In this document: positions 715 to 12,585 of the stretch, piece by piece
How the letters are laid out: every line of letters starts with the position of its first letter
How positions within the stretch are numbered: position 1 is the first letter of the stretch
Virus record (IMG/VR): IMGVR_UViG_3300026484_000110
DNA length: 64,000 nt
DNA from: a virus
Direction: 5' to 3' (one strand)
The notes under the pieces: generated by a model
Database searches by the model: none
What the model was told of the DNA's origin: nothing
What the model saw: the letters and a program-made list of their open reading frames with translations, nothing else
Program-made: the position numbers and the translations under genes

Positions 715-3700
715 ATGGATTTAAGATTTAAAGAATGGTATAGAAAATACGGTACTAGGAAAATGACTGACTTTGTCACTCCGAAATTGATTAATTTAGA
801 TAATATTTTCTACCCTAGAAATACTATTATACATTTTTATAATATGGATAGTAACATTTTCCCAACAACAAATATTTCGTATTTAAGAAATATTAAAAAA
901 GGAATAGTTACAAACTTAGTAGATTATAATAAACCAGTATTTGATGTTAAAAAGAAAACAGTATCGGAAACTACATTTAATAATAATCTAAAAAGAAGAT
1001 TTACGGATTTTAAAATTGTACCACCTAGTAAATTAAACAAACAAATAGAAAACAATCATAGTCTAATTAGGAAATATAATATAATTTACAATTATAGTTT
1101 TATAAATCAATTCTATAGGTATAAAAACTTATATTTAGACGAATACTATAAATTTAGAAATATAGGTAACACAATATTTTCGAATATAATAAACATTAAC
1201 AATATGAATTTTAAACCTAGTGAACAACCTAATCACTTTGTAATAATGAATTTACCATCTACATTTTATAGTAGACAAATCTTATTAAAATACATACATC
1301 AAAAATGGACTAATAGACAGTTATTAAATCTATTTTTCGATTATAACAGATTGAACATTTTAGAACTATTTAAAGCAATAATTAAAGAATTTAAAATAGA
1401 AACTAAATATGACCTAATAAGGAAAAAAAGAGATTTGGACAGTGTGAATATTCTATTTGTCCTTGAAGATAAAGGTATTATAATAAATTTAGGGATTTTA
1501 TTCAGCATGCTTAAAACATATCCCGAACTAGATTACAATACAAAAGTAGAACCTGATAAAATGTTTAAATTATTACACTATATGTTACATGCGATGTATG
1601 TATTACCTGGTTTTACCGTAGATGAGATTGAAACAGGTAAACATGAAGAAAAAATAAAAGATATACTAAATATAAAAGAAAAAACTAATTTATCAAACAT
1701 AGTAGATAATGAAGATAATAGTAAAGTATATCTGGTAGAGGAAATCGATGATAATACAGTAATAGACGATGAAAAGGAAATAGATAAGATAATAGAAAAA
1801 GATGAAGAAACCGAATTAGACATAGATGAAGAGATAAAGACTATTCCCAAATACAAACATATAAAAGAAATGCTCACTACTGATGATAATCCTGCTACTG
1901 ATGTAGATAAAACATTAGAAGCTATAGCAAAGGACATGGATTTAGATAATAAAAAATTAACGAAGATAAAGAAACAATTTGAAGAAGTCTTAAATACTCC
2001 TTCGCCGTTTGGTGATGAAAATACTATAAAAGACTTACTAGAAATAAGTGAACATGAAATAGAAATAAAGAGTGAAGAAAAGAAATTACCAAATGTAAAA
2101 GTAGCATTCGATAAAAAGATGCTAGAAGACCCTATTACAACTATAGATAAAAAATATATAAAACATGTTTATAAAAAAGATATCACTAGGACTGTGTTCA
2201 GTCTACAAAGAGCAGGTATGCTAGTTAAAGATTATAAAGTGGAAAAAGAAGATTCTATATTAGGAGAATATGAAATACATGAAATTACTTTTACAGATAT
2301 TAAAAAAGGTACTCATAAAGTTAAATTAAAACTACCTACAATAAACGAAGACGGTGTTTATAGTATGTCTGGTAACAGATATTTATTACGAAAAAGTAGA
2401 CAAGATCTGCCTATTAAAAAAATTGCTTTTAATAGAGTAAGTCTGTCGAGTGCATATGGTAAACTATTTATAGATAAAGCACCTCTTAAAAAATACGATA
2501 TAGGTTTTAGTATTAAAAAACAATTGACTAAAATGCTAGATAATAATAAAATTAGAAACTTAGTTTTAGGTAACGAAATTCCGCCTGATTTAAAGTTACC
2601 CATAGAATATACATGGTTTATGAGATATATAAAATCTTTTAGACTAAATAACATATTTTTTAATTTCGATTATGAAAATAGAGAGAAGATAGTAATAGAG
2701 AAAGGTCTAAAATTAGAAGATATTGAAAAGGATGGTTATGTTATCTGCGGTACAATAGATAACGACATATTAGTAATAGATAAAGATAATGTACTATACA
2801 GGTATAAAAATAAAAAGTATATTAAAATAGGTAAACTGATTGATGTTGTAGGTTTGGATAAAAAGAAACTAACTAGAGATTATTCAATGGTAAAGATTTA
2901 TAAAAATTATACACCAGTAGTATTTATGCTAATGTTTTACTTAGGATTAGACAATATGTTTAAAATACTAAATATAGACTATGTGAAATATGAAGGTAAT
3001 AAACAAAATAAAGATGAAAATACAATTGTATTTAAAACCAAATTCAGTACCTATTTCGTTAAACCAAAAAATGAAAAAGAAATGATGTTATTAAAAGGAT
3101 TAACACATTGGAAAAAAGAATGTAAAAGTTATCCAGATAATGTATTTAACGATAAAGATTTGATGCTAAGCTTTTTCAGAGATTTAAAAATACCTTTAAA
3201 TGTAATTACTGAAATAGAGTTATTAGATAATCTTTTTATAGATCCAGTTACAGCAAATACATTAAAACAAATGAAAGAACCTACTACGTTTACTGGTTTA
3301 TTATTAAGAGCTAATGAATTGCTGGCTGATGATAATTATATACATCCACAGAGTTTAAAAGGTTATGTTATCAAAGGTTATGAAAGAATTCCTCAGATGG
3401 TATATAACAAAATGGTAGAAGCTATAAGAAATAAAAAGAATGAAGAATTCTTTGGTAGAAATAGATTAGTATTTGATCCTTATAGTGTATGGAGAATACT
3501 AAATGAAGATAGTGCTAGTGTATTAGAAGACGACTTAAATCCTATAATATATCTAAAACAAAAAGAAGATGTCACTTATACTGGTTTTCTAGGTAGAAAA
3601 AAGGAATCAATGAGTAAGAGTACTAGAGAATTGCATCCTGATGATGTAGGCGTAATCTCTGAAGGTCATAAAGATAGTGGTGATGTCGGTATTTCGGCAT

Positions 3701-3832
3701 ACTTATCCGCTAATCCAATAATAAAAAATTTAAGAGGAATGAAAGGTGAAGAAAAAGAATTAAGTTTTAGTAACATTTTAAGTACCTCTGCATTATTAGC
3801 ACCATTTAGTACAACAGATGACTCAAAGAGGT
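715..3832 (+). CDS. rpoB: virion RNA polymerase beta subunit, N-terminal part (phiKZ gp178-like), exon 1
   Basis: beta-like motifs (PDDVGVISEG, GDVGISAYL, DDSKR matching bacterial beta HDDANR); frame broken by a group I intron; spliced product 1406 aa. Confidence 0.88.
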
Positions 3833-4182
3833 TAACTTTAGCCTCACTAGTTGGAAACAACTAGGAAAATTAAGGCGGTTAATTCGGGGGAACTCCTAAT
3901 CTAATAAAAGAGGTGATTTTGGTTAGGACAATCCCGAGCCAAGCTCCTATCTGGTTACGACTGGATAGGTAGAAGGTGTAACGACTATCCCGTGAGGGAG
4001 TAGGGTGCAAGCCACTGGCACTCGAAAAGCCGCCCACCCTAACGTAAAGTCGAGGGTGAAGATATAGTCTGGTCTCTATGGTAACATAGAGCAGAAGTTA
4101 ATGATTATGGGTATAAAGAAAAGTTTTATATCCATAACATTAACTTCGGGTATAGGAGTGGCGTCCTATACTGAACACATCG
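3833..4182 (+). ncRNA. group I self-splicing intron, 350 nt, no ORF
   Basis: P1 GAGGU/GCCUC with U.G at the splice site; P3 GGCGGUU/AGCCGCC; Q AAUCCCGAGC; R GUAACGACUAUC; S AAGAUAUAGUCU; terminal G4182; removal restores DDSKR-L-NFINIQNSH. Confidence 0.93.
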
Positions 4183-5285
4183 TAAATTTTATAAATATCC
4201 AAAATTCACACGTAATACCCATGAAAAATGCTACAGTTTATCCTGTAAGGACTGGTTACGACTCTGTATTAGCTTATAGATTACCTAAAAAGTTTATAGG
4301 ATTTGCTATTGATGATGGTATAGTAGAAACAGCTAGTAAAAATAAAATAATAGTTAATTACAAAAATAAAGGTAAGAAAACTTATATATTTAAAGATTGG
4401 AATAGTAAAGAAGAATCAAATAGTAGTTTTATACACAGAATGAAATCTAATGTTGTAAAAGGGCAAACAGTTAAACATGGAGATGTTTTATATTACGATA
4501 GTAGTTTCTTCGAACCTGATTTCTTCGATAAAACAAAAGTAACTTATAAACCATATCTTACAGTAACAACAGCTTTAATGGAAATAAATGAAACATTTGA
4601 AGATAGTAGTGCTATATCTAAAAAGATAGCTGATCTAGCAGAAATAGAACAAGTTAAAAGCAAATCAGTAATTTTAGATTGTACAGATGAAATTAGTAAT
4701 GTATTAAAAATAGGAGATAAAGTAAATCCTAACACCGCATTAATGACGATAGGTACTAGTATACTGGATGAAACTGGTAAATTATCAGAAGAGGCTTTAG
4801 ATATTTTACAAGGATTTATAAAGACTACTCCTAAAGCTAAAGTAAAAGGTGAAATAATAGATGTAAAAGTATTTTACCATTGTGAAAAAGAAAACATGAG
4901 TGAGTCAATAAGAGAAATAGTAGAATATGCTGAGAAATTTTTAGTAGATAAAAATACTGGTAAAAAATATACTGGTAAGGTAGATAGTAGTTATAGTATA
5001 AAAGGAAAACCTCTAGATCCAGGTAAAATAGAAATTAAATATTACTTTAGATTAGGATCTAAAATGGTAACAGGTGATAAAGCTATTTTTGGTAACCAGT
5101 TAAAAACTACAGTAGGTGAAATATTTAATTATCCGATTGTATCTGACTCTGGTAAAGAAATAGATGCATTATTTAGTGCTAGAGCAATTTACGCTAGGAT
5201 AGTTAACAGTCCTAGTCTAATGGGTACTACTGCTAGATTATTAAGAGAAATCAGTAAAAAAGCTGCTGATATGTATCTGGGATGA
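4183..5285 (+). CDS. rpoB: virion RNA polymerase beta subunit, N-terminal part, exon 2
   Basis: NFINIQNSHV, VRTGYD, FEDSSAIS, GDKAIFGNQLKTTV (beta GDK motif); in frame with exon 1 after splicing. Confidence 0.88.
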
Positions 5286-6958: not shown

Positions 6959-8820
6959 ATGGAAAAACTAACATTCTGCTTAAAGTAAATAGATGCAACT
7001 TTCTAAAAGTCACTGTACGCTCACCTAGCGATTTCCTAGACGTGCTAAATAAACTAATAACAACATTACCTAATGGAAAGTTTAATACCGATCTAGAGCT
7101 ATCACTAACTACCCATACCAGTGACTGCGATTATCTAATAAAAGATTTAAATACCTCAGAATTAGCAGTTTTTGATAAAAATGGTAAAAAGGTAATGACT
7201 ATATCTAAAACAAAATATCCGAAATTTGCTAATTGGATAAAATGGGAAAGACCACAGTTTGAACTTTATGAAACAACAACGGAAACAAAACAACCAGATT
7301 TAAACAACAATTCCCAAGAAATTATTGTAAAAAATGAATTTTTAAATAGTCTAGAAGATATATTAAAAGAAACAAACAAAAGCATTTGTTTAACTTCTGA
7401 AGGTGAATTATGTTTTACGGACAAAGAAGACCAGATGGATTATATACCAATACCTGTTAGAAATCAACTGTTAAAAATGGATTATGAAGAATTCAAAAGA
7501 CAGGTAGAATATATTAGAACAGAAATAGCAAGAACAAGTAAAAGCAGAAAATACACTGTTTATCTAAAGACAATAAAAGATTATTATCTAAGATTTATTA
7601 TTAAAGCTAAATCATTAAACTACTGCCTATTGAATATTTCTGACTACTTAGCGTATAAACGTAAAGATGATGATTTTTTAGCAATTGATTTAATATCAAA
7701 ATTACCACTTAACGCAGAATATCTTCTAAAAGAAACTGAAAAACGTGATTTTATTCTGTATAGAATAAACCCTGAATTTGATTCTAACAGTAAAGGAATA
7801 AAAATTATTGAATCCGATACTGGAAAAAGAATTGGTATAAAAACTACAGAAGATTGGTGGAATAATCTTAAAGAATTAAAAGAAACATTATACGAAGAAG
7901 GAGTAAAAATGAATTTCAAAAATAAGGACGAAGCAATCGACAAACTCTATAAAGTATTAAGAGATACAAATACATTTCTAGATTTGGACTTAGAGGATTG
8001 TAAAATAGGCGCTAGGATAAACAATCATGGAAATATGGACCATTATATATCTGGTAATTTTGCAAACTTCTTTGTAACATTGAACAATGAACAAGCTATA
8101 AAATTAGTGGAGACTATAATTCCTATAATTCAACGTGAGTTTGATCCAGAGCATACTGTTACAACTAACGTATGTCTAGTTACAAGCGTATTGCCTGATT
8201 TAAATTACTGTTATGAGCAACCTAACAACAAGGAATTACCAGAAATGGAAAATTTAATACTTTCAGAAATTAAAGTAAAAGACGGATACAAATATGAAAC
8301 TTACGTGTCCCACGATGGAAAAAGAAAATTTATAGCAAAATACAAATTAGAAGAGTTTAAAGAAATAGAAACCAACATAACAAACATTTACAGTAAATTT
8401 AAAGAAAATAAAAAACTAACTAATGAAGAGAACGGATATGTGATCCAATACATCGAAAACAAAATTTCGAATAAAAAATCAATAAGTAATGAAGAAATGA
8501 GACTATTTATAATTGCTATTTATTCTAGAATTTGCTGGATATTAAATGCAGTAAAGACATTTCCTGATCTATCTTCTAAACTAGATGAGGTGTTTGATAC
8601 AGTAAATGAATACTTAAATACTGCCAAAAAAGTAGGTTACCTAAAAGATTTCCATACGGTTCTATTTAATGGGATTGAACTTTATATGGCAGACGAGAGT
8701 AAAGAAGACCATATGAACTTGGTAGATGATTTACATTTAGTATTTACTATGTTACTATCAAAGCTTACTGTGGCAACAACCGAAGAATATCAAAAATCAA
8801 ATACAGTACCAGAGGGATAA
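6959..8820 (+). CDS. hypothetical early protein; probable true start 6959 with a 1-nt frameshift (track ORF 7042..8820)
   Basis: RBS AAGGAG before ATG6959; that frame stops after 9 codons while the long frame is already open; GTG7042 has no RBS. Confidence 0.65.
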
Positions 8821-8935: not shown

Positions 8936-10150
8936 ATGCCTGTTGTACAACGTATAAAAAATCTGGACGAATACTTTCACGCTACAGAAAGAAAGTTGTT
9001 GCTGAATAATTTTAGTCTTTTAGAGACTAATCCAGAAGACCTAGTAAAACTCCTCTATACTAAATACGAGGATGAAATCACATTAATACCACAATGTGAG
9101 TGTGGTAATTATAAAGGAGCTTATCTATTAGGTAAAGTGTGTCCTAAATGCAATACCACAGTAATCAAGACGTTTGATGAAATTAAACCATTACTCTGGA
9201 TTGAACAATTTAGAGATGATTTACCATTTTTAAATCCTCACTTTTGGACACAGATGCGGTATCTATTATCCAGAAAAATAGATTGCGTAAGATGGTTAGG
9301 TGATACATCATACAATCCACCAGGAGTACCTGCATTTATGCAAACTATTAAAGAATTAATAGGAGGTAGAGGATATAAAAATCTAATTTCCAATATAGAA
9401 AAGATTTTACTATACGTAGCCAATAATAGTCTTTTCAGAGCTAATGGTAAAGATGTTAAAGCTAAAAAGCTATTAAAAGAATATCAGGAGAATAAAGATA
9501 AACTGTTTTCCAGTTATCTACCACTGATAAATAAAAGACTATTTGTAATGGAAGTCACTAATAAGGGTAATTATACTACATCCATGTTAGCCGATACAAT
9601 AGACATAGCATTATTTGCTATCAAGTTAGCTAATCTGGATAAAAACAGTAAAAAGGTAGAAAACGGTACAGCTACCCTAATAGCTAATTTAAGTAACTTA
9701 TTTAACAAGTATGTAAAAGAAAAATTAGCTGGTAAAAAAGGTATGGTAAGAAAACATATTTATGGTAGTAGATCCCATTTTACATTCAGAGCAGTAATTA
9801 CGTCATTACCATCTACTGCTGACTATGATGAATTATGGGTACCGTGGACAATAGGAGTAACAGCATTTAGACCGCATCTGTTAAACAAACTGTTAAAAAG
9901 AGGATTTACCTATAAGAAAGCTAGTAGACTGTTATTTAATTCAGTAAACAAGTATGATCCACTAATAGACGAGCTCTTAATCGAATTAATAAAAGAGAGT
10001 CCTTATAAAGGAATACCTATATTGTTTAACAGAAATCCAAGCCTTCTTCAAGGTTCAATTCAGCTACAATATATAACCAAATTCAAAAAGGATGTTAGAG
10101 ATAAAACTATCAGCGTAAGTATGCTAGTAATAAAGGCGCCAAACGGTGAT
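8936..10150 (+). CDS. rpoC: non-virion RNA polymerase beta' subunit, N-terminal part (phiKZ gp55-like), exon 1
   Basis: AGGAGG RBS; zinc finger CECG..CPKC; RKHIYGSRSHFTFRAVI; NRNPSL; ends in NGD of the catalytic motif; spliced product 481 aa. Confidence 0.9.
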
Positions 10151-11938
10151 CCATTGACTACCCGTTAAACTTAATAAATTTTATTATTATGACTCCTTAT
10201 ATTGAATATTTAAAAAAGGAGTTAAGAATGAAAACAAAAATCAAAAAACAATTTATAAAATACCCAGAGATTCACAAATACCCAAAAGGTTTAGAATGGT
10301 TAAAGGATGCTATAAAATACGTTCCTGCCAAAATAAGACAAGGCAATGGTCCGTATGAAATAGTTCGCATACCGATGTTTGACGCACCTGTTGTATTTTG
10401 CAGTATAAAAACAAGAAAAGAATATGCTGTTGTCCCAATAGCGCCTAGATATGTCGTGGATAAAGTTGGTAATGTTTATGACCTACTAACAAAAACCAAA
10501 CTAAAAACACATGGTCATAACAGCGAATATGAATATGTCGTAATCACAACACAAACACATCCCCAGTACAGAACAACGGTGCACCGCCTTATGGCTTATG
10601 CGTGGTTACCAAACAACGACTTTGTTACAGATTACATTGTGGACCATAAAAATAATGACAAAAAGGACAATCGTTTAGAAAACATTCACTGGACTACTAT
10701 GGAACAGAATTCTGCTAACGTACATAGTAGAACAAACCTAAAATTAGGTATGTATGTGTTAACAAATGTGCTAGATAAAAAGATATGGTTTTGCGATAAC
10801 TTAAACAGAGTGAGTGAAATATTAGGATTGAGTAAATCCACCATATCCGAGAAAAAGACACCATCTTGGTTTAACAAGACATCTAATTCAGAGACAGAAC
10901 CTGATGAGTTATATTATCTAACAGATGACAATAGTTACAGACAATATCTCATGGATCCCAGTTTAATAGATTTACCATGGGGTGTGATTGTTAAAAACAA
11001 GGAAACTGGTGAATTAGAGTTCTATAACAATAAGACTAAATTATGGAGAAAATTGACTGGTGAAAAAGGATACTTATATAAAGATTCTGACTTATTGGAC
11101 GTCTTAAAAGACCATGAAAAGTATGAGTTATTTAAACTACACAAAAAGCAGTCTAAGGAACCAGTGAAAGTCAAAAACTTGGTTACAGGTGAAGTAAAAG
11201 AATTTAATGGTATAAAACCGGCTAAAAAGCTTTTAAAGATAAGTACTACTAAGTTAGCAGAATTTCTAAACGATGACAAGTGTTATAACATAAATGGCTG
11301 GGTGCTATGGAAAAATGGTAAATGGTGTATGGATGACTTAATTAATTATAGTAGAAATACACCTGTATTGGTAGAATTTAAAGATGGAACAAAAAAGGAA
11401 TTCAATGGTATACGGGAGGCAGCTAGACATCTTAATGTAAATCAAAAGACTATTATTAACTTTATGAAAGGTAAGAATGCTCCTATAATAGATTCTCTGG
11501 GTATTAAAAGAATTGTTAAAGTTTAACGGGTCGAGGTCACCCTAGGGTAGTAATACTCTAGCAAAATACTCCCCTAACTGCGGGAACCGTGTAAAAGCTA
11601 TGGCTACCACTCATACCGGGAAACCGAGTATGATACTCATCCCAGTAATGGAGGTGATGAGCATGGTGAAAACGTCATAGTGTTGCGGGATCGACGCAGC
11701 GAAGTCCCTACGTCTTCTATAGATATGGGATATGTTCAGAGGCCACCGAAAGCTGCGACTATGTCGAAAGACATAGTAATAGTGAGGGTAAGGTAAGACT
11801 GCCCGCTGGTAGTGTGACTACTGGTAAAGCGAGTAGGGTACCATCTATATAGATGGGAAACGGGGAGCATCCGACTGCCTAAGGGATGAATTGTCCTATG
11901 GTAAGGGATGAAGATATGGTCCGGGTACAATGTACTCG
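10151..11938 (+). mobile_element. group I intron 1 of nvRNAP beta' (1788 nt) carrying an HNH homing endonuclease gene
   Basis: IGS GUCGAG-GUCACC (11530-11541) complementary to ligated exons GGUGAU|UUCGAC; P AACUGCGGGAA; R UUCAGAGGCCA; S AAGAUAUGGUCC; terminal G11938. Confidence 0.9.
10228..11526 (+). CDS. intron-encoded HNH homing endonuclease with NUMOD1/IENR1-like DNA-binding repeats
   Basis: VHRLMAYAW..VDHKNNDKKDNRLENIHW..N HNH motif; about four C-terminal NUMOD1-like units; RBS AAGGAG favours ATG10228 over 10189. Confidence 0.9.
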   Translation: MKTKIKKQFIKYPEIHKYPKGLEWLKDAIKYVPAKIRQGNGPYEIVRIPMFDAPVVFCSIKTRKEYAVVPIAPRYVVDKVGNVYDLLTKTKLKTHGHNSEYEYVVITTQTHPQYRTTVHRLMAYAWLPNNDFVTDYIVDHKNNDKKDNRLENIHWTTMEQNSANVHSRTNLKLGMYVLTNVLDKKIWFCDNLNRVSEILGLSKSTISEKKTPSWFNKTSNSETEPDELYYLTDDNSYRQYLMDPSLIDLPWGVIVKNKETGELEFYNNKTKLWRKLTGEKGYLYKDSDLLDVLKDHEKYELFKLHKKQSKEPVKVKNLVTGEVKEFNGIKPAKKLLKISTTKLAEFLNDDKCYNINGWVLWKNGKWCMDDLINYSRNTPVLVEFKDGTKKEFNGIREAARHLNVNQKTIINFMKGKNAPIIDSLGIKRIVKV

Positions 11939-11947
11939 TTCGACGGT
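11939..11947 (+). CDS. rpoC: 9-nt micro-exon (TTC GAC GGT = F-D-G) of nvRNAP beta'
   Basis: Lies between terminal G of intron 1 and P1 of intron 2; completes NGD-FDG-DEMN. Confidence 0.9.
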
Positions 11948-12363
11948 TAATGTTGGCTGTCCTAGAGTAGGAATACTCTAGTCAAAAACCCTCCTAATTG
12001 CGGAGACATCCTAAAGCTAACGAGTACTAACTTATCTGGGAAACTAGATAAGGGCATGGAGAGGCGAGTGCTCCATGGTATAGTAAAAAGCTCGTTAGTA
12101 TGGGACAATCCGCAGCGAAGCACCTACGTCCTATTGGATATGGTGTGTGTTCAACGACTGTCGAAAGGATAGCTATTCTGGAAACGGAATAGTGAAAACC
12201 GAGTAGAGTAGGACTCAAGTGAGTTCGAAACGGAGGGCACCCGACTGCCTAAGGGATAAAATATCCTATGGTAAAGGGTGATGGTGTAGTCTGGTCTCTA
12301 GTGAAAGCTAGAGCTGCGGGTAATGCCGCGGGACAGGAGTAACGACCCTGTCTGAACATCACG
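11948..12363 (+). ncRNA. group I intron 2 of nvRNAP beta' (416 nt, no ORF)
   Basis: P1 GACGGU/GCUGUC with U.G; P AAUUGCGGAG; Q AAUCCGCAGC; R UUCAACGACUG; S GGUGUAGUCU; terminal G12363 before GAC GAG ATG AAT. Confidence 0.9.
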
Positions 12364-12585
12364 GACGAGATGAATGCCACAATATTGCTAGACAATGAAA
12401 TGGTGAGACTAGCAGATACATTTAGTCCTGAGTTCAATATTGTGGATTTAGATTATTTTAAGGTAAATAAAAATCTATATCTACCATCTAGTATTATTGC
12501 TACGTTATCTAATTATTTACATAATGAAGATAACAATAAGGTAGATAAAGATCCAGTATTTGAAAAATTGGTATCTACGGGTTAA
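12364..12585 (+). CDS. rpoC: nvRNAP beta' N-terminal part, exon 3
   Basis: Begins DEMN, the usual continuation of DFDGD; in frame with track ORF 12370..12585. Confidence 0.88.
   Translation, partial: DEMNATILLDNEMVRLADTFSPEFNIVDLDYFKVNKNLYLPSSIIATLSNYLHNEDNNKVDKDPVFEKLVSTG

Follow-up and report, generated by a model that had tools for sequence, protein, structure and literature searches.

The DNA analyzed here, called the window throughout, is the 64-kb (64,000 nucleotides, nt) viral record IMGVR_UViG_3300026484_000110 from IMG/VR. Between positions 8936 and 12585, its plus strand carries a phiKZ-gp55-like RNA polymerase beta'-N gene that is interrupted twice within the codons of its catalytic motif, NxDFDGD. 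Exon 1 (8936..10150; 405 codons) starts with an ATG that is preceded by the Shine-Dalgarno sequence AAAGGAGG and ends with AAC GGT GAT (10142-10150), which codes for N-G-D with the first catalytic aspartate; the unspliced frame runs into a stop after five further codons past 10150. There follows a group I intron of 1788 nt (intron 1; 10151..11938), which has its core at the 3' end and G11938 as its terminal base. The micro-exon TTCGACGGT (11939..11947), 9 nt coding for F-D-G with the second catalytic aspartate, sits exactly between this G and the first base of intron 2 (11948..12363), a second group I intron of 416 nt that lacks an open reading frame (ORF) and terminates with G12363. Exon 3 (12364..12585; 73 codons plus stop) opens with GAC GAG ATG AAT, coding for D-E-M-N with the third catalytic aspartate, and reaches its stop at 12585. 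A preliminary description of this DNA had named these boundaries, all of which can be read directly in the sequence, and its assignment of one catalytic aspartate to each exon is upheld by the gene structure.

When joined in silico, the three exons encode a protein of 481 amino acids (aa) from ATG 8936 that contains NGDFDGDEMN, carries APNGDFDGDEMN across the motif and predicts APNGDFDGDEMNATILLDNEMVR as the peptide spanning both junctions. The reading frame is open in every exon, and residues conserved in the family are preserved. The 481-aa beta' protein of the preliminary description was thus reproduced, and it aligns to the uninterrupted homologues from PhiPA3, FLC9 and AgentSmith without gaps through NADFDGDxLN to the C-terminus. 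In a tblastn search of the window with the intronless metagenomic relative P0007 (483 aa), 8936-10150 matched aa 1-403 and 12364-12519 matched aa 407-458; what is missing between these two pieces amounts to precisely the three residues FDG, which the micro-exon supplies.

Tblastn with exon 1 matched 318 phage records, all of them from phiKZ-like giant phages, with the best matches showing 31-36% identity over nearly the whole length of the exon; among them is PhiPA3 gp054, whose annotation states similarity to phiKZ gp055 and which matches 100% of exon 1 at 33% identity. A Pfam search of exon 1 alone gave no match; uninterrupted relatives of the beta'-N protein carry PF00623. In phiKZ, the non-virion RNA polymerase has gp55 as its beta'-N subunit, and this protein contains the NADFDGD magnesium site. 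Judged by homology over its full length, the motif included, the interrupted gene is of the phiKZ gp55 beta'-N type. At the nucleotide level, a megablast search with the locus returned no match among 50,697 phage records, and the matches from a distant blastn search were all short and fell in introns of Vibrio, Staphylococcus and Pseudomonas phages. A search of IMG/VR with exon 1 for related loci yielded no confirmed relative.

The segment 11527-12363 comprises 837 G+C-richer bases that form two similar halves parted by TTCGACGGT. Both halves match the Rfam covariance model for group I introns (Intron_gpI, RF00028; gathering score 50 bits): 11524-11943 matches the full model with 38.6 bits (E 1.8e-8), and 11941-12313 scores 70.7 bits (E 4.2e-18), which is above the gathering score. 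The two group I cores that had been proposed for this segment are hence both found. Short scans of about 430-550 nt recovered all three group I introns of the window, the third of which is described further below; a whole-window scan at the gathering threshold and a 2.6-kb E-value scan reported no group I intron, an artefact of the speed filters. The two cores are 57% identical and match each other in nhmmer searches.

Covariation was assessed in an alignment of eleven sequences (A1), the two window cores and nine related introns from the loci of relatives, with helices P2, P3, P4, P5a, P6, P6a, P7, P7.2, P8, P9, P9.1 and P9.2 drawn from intron 2. Standard pairs occupy 86.3% of the cells, as opposed to 35-42% after a shift of the 3' partner by 1-3 columns, a comparison that favours the unslid register, as one of the aligned sequences served as the template for the structure; independent of that is the count of pairs in which both sides have changed (49 of 68). 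None of 500 shuffles reached the observed values, and pairing amounts to 93.9% in P3, 100% in P7 and 92.5% in P8. Both 5' splice sites follow U, and both introns end in G. Taking the conserved fold and these boundaries as our guide, we conclude that both intervening sequences are group I introns. The covariance-model alignments of both place large insertions between P7 and P3', and the hand-drawn P7.2 is 76% paired and shows two-sided changes, which suggests the P7.1/P7.2 helices of subgroup IA.

Other readings of the same interval were considered and rejected. Splice sites shifted to a 5' site after TTCGACGG and a 3' site after ...CAC would also code for FDGDE, yet they break both the U rule and the terminal-G rule. 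An intein is ruled out by stop codons in all frames and by the RNA structure. Nor are the introns nested as in a twintron, since they lie side by side with 9 exon nt between them, each with its own P1, core and terminal G.

The internal guide sequence of intron 1, whose position we correct to 11530..11541, lies just before P2. Its 3' part, GUCACC (11536-11541), pairs with the exon 1 end GGUGAU to form P1, with U10150 opposite G11536, and its 5' part, GUCGAG (11530-11535), pairs with UUCGAC of the micro-exon through 5-6 base pairs (bp) to form P10, which directly adjoins P1. Against the ligated junction GGUGAU|UUCGAC, the guide makes 12 consecutive pairs (-20.5 kcal/mol). In two relatives, as read by eye from the loci, changes at the start of the 3' exon are accompanied by changes in the P10 part of the guide: the exon starts with UAUGAC and the guide has GUUAUA in L007, and the corresponding elements are UAUGAU and AUUAUG in L010. 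Because the endonuclease gene of this intron is looped out of P1, about 1.4 kb separate the guide from the 5' splice site. The arms of a long-range helix (10160..10189 and 11502-11531) close this ORF-bearing loop of 1.35 kb; they rank first among the inverted repeats of the region (30 nt, 80% complementarity, -21.1 kcal/mol), and the core of the helix, ACCCGUUAAAC/GUUUAACGGGU, is retained in the related locus L004. Inside the P1-closing helix, a second long-range complementarity (10247-10273/11491-11517; 27 nt, 81%) connects the beginning of the endonuclease ORF with its end.

This ORF (10228..11526; 432 aa) lies wholly inside intron 1 on the plus strand and matches the Pfam families HNH_3 (3.4e-8), NUMOD1 (5.2e-9) and I-HmuI_NUMOD-like (2.4e-6), as well as PDB 1U3E, the solved structure of the HNH homing endonuclease I-HmuI (E 8.2e-5). 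Its domains and its location within an intron identify the predicted product as a member of the I-HmuI-like HNH homing endonucleases. The preliminary description had started the gene at 10189; most likely, translation begins at ATG 10228, behind the Shine-Dalgarno sequence AAGGAGT at 10216-10222. This Shine-Dalgarno sequence can pair with ACTCCTT (10192-10198), and the resulting hairpin (10192-10222), which L004 retains with an altered loop, is reminiscent of those by which the endonuclease genes of T4 introns conceal their ribosome-binding sites.

The P1 helix of intron 2 is local: GACGGU (11942-11947) pairs with the guide GCUGUC (11956-11961; -6.0 kcal/mol), and U11947 stands opposite G11956. 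The micro-exon is consequently read by both introns: its bases 1-6 form P10 of intron 1, its bases 4-9 form P1 of intron 2, and GAC is used by both helices. One might alternatively regard 10151-12363 as a single composite intron that contains the 9 nt by chance, all the more as the two cores are related and related tandem introns can fold as one large ribozyme (PMC10136302). The product of such an intron would have lost FDG from a motif that is invariant elsewhere. Exactly these residues are encoded by the nonamer, and TTYGAYGGN describes only 16 of the 262,144 possible nonamers, that is a chance of about 6e-5 per position. Moreover, it pairs with both guides, is identical in L004 (7994-8002), and relatives exist in which one or the other intron is present singly at its site. 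We therefore regard the composite intron as hardly credible.

The occupancy of the two sites was followed in relatives from a large protein database, in which 234 were found at E<=1e-10 and the best 120 clusters were sorted by the end of their gene model. Among these 120 closest clusters, about 47 are uninterrupted, 16 ORFs end after the RN of NRNPSL, and about 57 end inside NxDxDGD(E) at no fewer than six different points; 11 clusters end with ...DxDG, which fits an occupied site 2. Hence, roughly 60% of these gene models break in or near NxDFDGD. The preliminary description had suggested looking for both insertion sites in other beta' genes, and they were indeed recovered, together and singly. 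Locus L004 (67% protein identity to the window) possesses both introns, the same 9-nt micro-exon and an equally placed endonuclease gene. Intron 1 alone, at the intron 1 site, is represented in L007/L008 (52%), and L014 (53%) has one intron, whose position coincides exactly with that of intron 2 (GGT|...ACG|GAT). Since each of the two window sites is used alone in other relatives, the two introns are independent elements.

Further relatives carry two introns at other pairs of sites, flanking about 11 nt in L005/L006 (58% protein identity), TATGATGGAGAT (12 nt) in L010 (50%) and about 13 nt in L012 (43%); L011 (43%) has one intron, and the introns of L019 (46%) lie at RN|PS and NA|D. Twin arrangements with tiny catalytic exons have arisen several times. 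The introns at the NG| site of L011 (1400-1800) and L012 (5730-6130) seem to be spliced after G (AAUGGG|), which is paired with C in P1; these boundaries do not fit the rule of a U before the splice site, and the micro-exon lengths given for these loci are approximate. The metagenomic relative L019 has a Pfam chimallin gene upstream, and a gene for an IS605 OrfB/TnpB-like protein (Cas12f1-like_TNB; 3209-4378) is situated between its chimallin and beta' genes.

Taken together, we consider it highly probable (roughly 0.88) that the beta'-N gene is split inside NxDFDGD by two adjacent and independent group I introns whose self-splicing joins NGD, FDG and DEMN into a protein of 481 aa. Each intron would be removed by the ordinary two-step pathway that is initiated by guanosine. 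Intron 1 would use the P1 helix GGUGAU/GUCACC and the P10 helix UUCGAC/GUCGAG, with the long-range helix bringing its guide back to the 5' splice site; intron 2 would use the P1 helix GACGGU/GCUGUC. Both splicing events should be required for the NGD-FDG-DEMN sequence and the 481-aa subunit. As P10 of intron 1 can form before the guide of intron 2 is transcribed, splicing probably proceeds from 5' to 3' during transcription, an order that calls for no special mechanism, and either order should work. With respect to their origin, the codons of the conserved motif may represent a hotspot for homing and reverse splicing, with the two sites colonised separately; intron 2, which has no ORF and lies 9 bp from the intron 1 site, is probably co-carried when the endonuclease of intron 1 drives homing.

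Several points weigh against this reading. The splice junctions GAT|TTC and GGT|GAC were deduced from the sequence, and the score of intron 1 is below the gathering score of Rfam. P10 of intron 2 is weak, with about 3 bp and -1.1 kcal/mol. P10 is dispensable in many group I introns. For the predicted gp56 intron of phiKZ, ONT-cappable-seq did not detect splicing (PMC10914365), and introns of this type may accordingly be inefficient in splicing or be spliced in certain circumstances only. A comparison of the window with L004 gives nucleotide identities of 68% for the exons, 84% for the endonuclease gene and 94-96% for the intron cores (intron 2, 95.7%). These high values fit a pair of introns that moves as a unit, or a strong constraint on the ribozymes; they could equally reflect purifying selection rather than a recent joint transfer.

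The low score of intron 1 and the undetected splicing in phiKZ would also suit a decaying pseudogene, or a gene in which one or both ribozymes are dead, with polymerase function provided by another copy. No paralogue of the beta'-N gene was found within the 64-kb window, to which the search for a second copy was confined, and it is the gp55-type subunit that holds the catalytic motif of this polymerase. All exons, as stated above, retain open frames and the residues conserved in the family. Furthermore, the micro-exon, both guides and all core helices are intact, and they are conserved in a phage, that of L004, whose exons are only 68% identical. Decay of the gene is thus very improbable.

A regulatory role of the twin introns is an explanation of a different kind. 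Ordered or alternative splicing, through skipping of the micro-exon or through the use by intron 2 of a cryptic AACGGU in exon 1, would time or limit the formation of active polymerase, or would yield a catalytically dead subunit. That the GAC of the micro-exon takes part both in P10 of intron 1 and in P1 of intron 2 is in keeping with this idea, as is the in-frame length of 9 nt, by which a skipped product, NGD-DEMN, would still be translated. In addition, the guide of intron 2 can pair with AACGGU at 10142-10147 (5 bp, -3.8 kcal/mol), and exon skipping has been documented for the 23-nt exon of Twort and for engineered tandem introns (PMC10136302). The authentic P1 is, however, stronger (-6.0 versus -3.8 kcal/mol) and local, and many relatives have one intron or none. 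The micro-exons of relatives measure 11, 12 and 13 nt and lie at other pairs of sites; several of them would cause a frameshift if skipped, which makes a conserved skip isoform unlikely. We consequently view a regulatory device as improbable and prefer two introns that are both simply spliced out.

The preliminary description had considered this architecture unfamiliar. This holds insofar as our literature search, for which most subscription journals were outside its scope, found no paper that describes an RNA polymerase gene of a phage as carrying twin introns or a micro-exon; within the same incomplete coverage, no paper linking group I introns with DFDGD was found. It does not hold for the arrangement as such, since tandem introns have been published for phage Twort and micro-exons of 11-13 nt occur in the relatives and in phage Goslar. 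In Twort, introns 2 and 3 of orf142 flank an exon of 23 nt, with exon skipping, according to Landthaler & Shub (1999) as cited in PMC10136302. As at our locus, two closely related phage group I introns, of the IA type in Twort and putatively so in the window, are adjacent in one protein gene, with a very short exon between them, and the full product would need both of them to be spliced. The host gene differs in Twort, and the exon has 23 rather than 9 nt; in the window, the exon is the middle of a catalytic motif, and an HNH endonuclease gene resides in P1.

That single introns are known from RNA polymerase genes of the phiKZ family had been stated correctly: the gp55/gp56 (HNH)/gp56.1 intron was predicted long ago (Mesyanzhinov et al. 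2002, as cited in PMC10914365), and we read it as a single intron with an HNH ORF at N|ADFDGD. The gene family and the motif are the same as in the window, and the HNH ORF likewise follows just after the 5' splice site with the core downstream; in contrast, the phiKZ intron is single, is inserted after the asparagine and leaves no micro-exon. In the chimallivirus PhiPA3, the gp210 intron of the virion RNA polymerase beta gene is a mobile group I intron with a nicking HNH endonuclease and confers a competitive advantage, with an effect on the competition between phages in PhiPA3/phiKZ (Birkholz et al. 2024, PMC11620839). Here, too, a group I intron adjoins the catalytic aspartates of a chimallivirus RNA polymerase gene. 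It concerns the beta subunit of the virion enzyme and a single intron, however, and its competitive function was shown experimentally.

A similar arrangement was read by us in Escherichia phage vB_EcoM_Goslar (MK327938), whose homologous gene (Goslar_00188/00186/00185) is interrupted within NADFDGD by two group I introns. Exon 1 ends with ...AAT GCC GAC TT and is followed by a group I core, an HNH/NUMOD1 ORF, the micro-exon C GAC GGT GAC GCT of about 13 nt, and a second intron of about 355 nt that ends with ...CACG before ATG AAC AAC.... Twin introns within the motif, a micro-exon and an HNH/NUMOD1 ORF in one intron are common to both loci; the insertion points of Goslar are different (NADF| and DGDA|), and its ORF follows the first core and is not placed in P1. 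The GenBank record contains one Intron_gpI feature and lists the exons as separate hypothetical proteins; the second intron (167861-168235, between Goslar_00186 and Goslar_00185) is unannotated, and our literature search found no published description of the Goslar twin introns. Very short exons kept between self-splicing introns are furthermore known from the 23S rRNA of Coxiella burnetii, where tandem introns surround an exon of 34 nt (PMC10136302), and from organelles, with micro-exons down to 1 bp, for example in placozoan cox1 (PMC5436844). These cases concern rRNA or mitochondrial genes, and the organellar ones lie outside phages and bacteria.

With 23 and 34 nt as the published short exons found for phages and bacteria, the 9-nt exon is the shortest of its kind that we found for phage or bacterial group I introns, and each catalytic aspartate stands on an exon of its own. 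The kind of arrangement is known already; what appears to be new is its degree, 9 nt and one aspartate per exon, together with a crowded hotspot in which twins recur. Six of the nine bases serve P10 of intron 1 and six serve P1 of intron 2, with almost no spare room left. The micro-exon hence offers a natural test of the shortest exon that two group I ribozymes can share with accurate splicing. With its six or more breakpoints within about 25 bases and its several independent twin arrangements, the hotspot is suited to the study of competition and hitchhiking among mobile introns, and these questions are accessible to experiment, as Goslar can be cultured in the laboratory and has a similar arrangement. 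For annotation, the lesson is a practical one: gene callers cut this essential polymerase gene into false pieces, and intron-aware annotation of the polymerases of giant phages is needed.

More tentatively, and as a possibility that we ourselves doubt, the NxDFDGD codons of chimallivirus beta' genes might be a site of conflict between introns. ORF-less introns would settle a few bases from the site of an endonuclease-bearing intron, ride along its co-conversion tract and alter the target of the neighbouring endonuclease, repeatedly producing catalytic micro-exons of 9-13 nt. If this were true, inclusion of the micro-exon would need two ribozymes that share one short exon, and no protein gene of a phage or bacterium would be known in which self-splicing introns are packed more densely.

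Two neighbouring features of the plus strand complete the picture. Directly upstream of the beta' gene, at the place that is taken in PhiPA3 and phiKZ by the gene for chimallin, the nuclear shell protein, lies an ORF of 592 aa (7042-8820). It has no Pfam match and no tblastn match among the 50,697 phage records, so that it cannot be called chimallin, and it is not found at this place in L004. A third group I intron, again without an ORF, is located at 3823-4183 and scores 100.2 bits with RF00028 over 3823-4091; the whole-window Rfam scan had missed it as well. Its 5' splice site reads ...GAT GAC TCA AAG AGG T|, and its 3' end is ...CACATCG before TAAATTTT. This intron splits a large gene into the ORFs 715-3864 and 4101-5285, neither of which has a match in Pfam; in L004 and L006, there is one gene of 1404-1406 aa instead.

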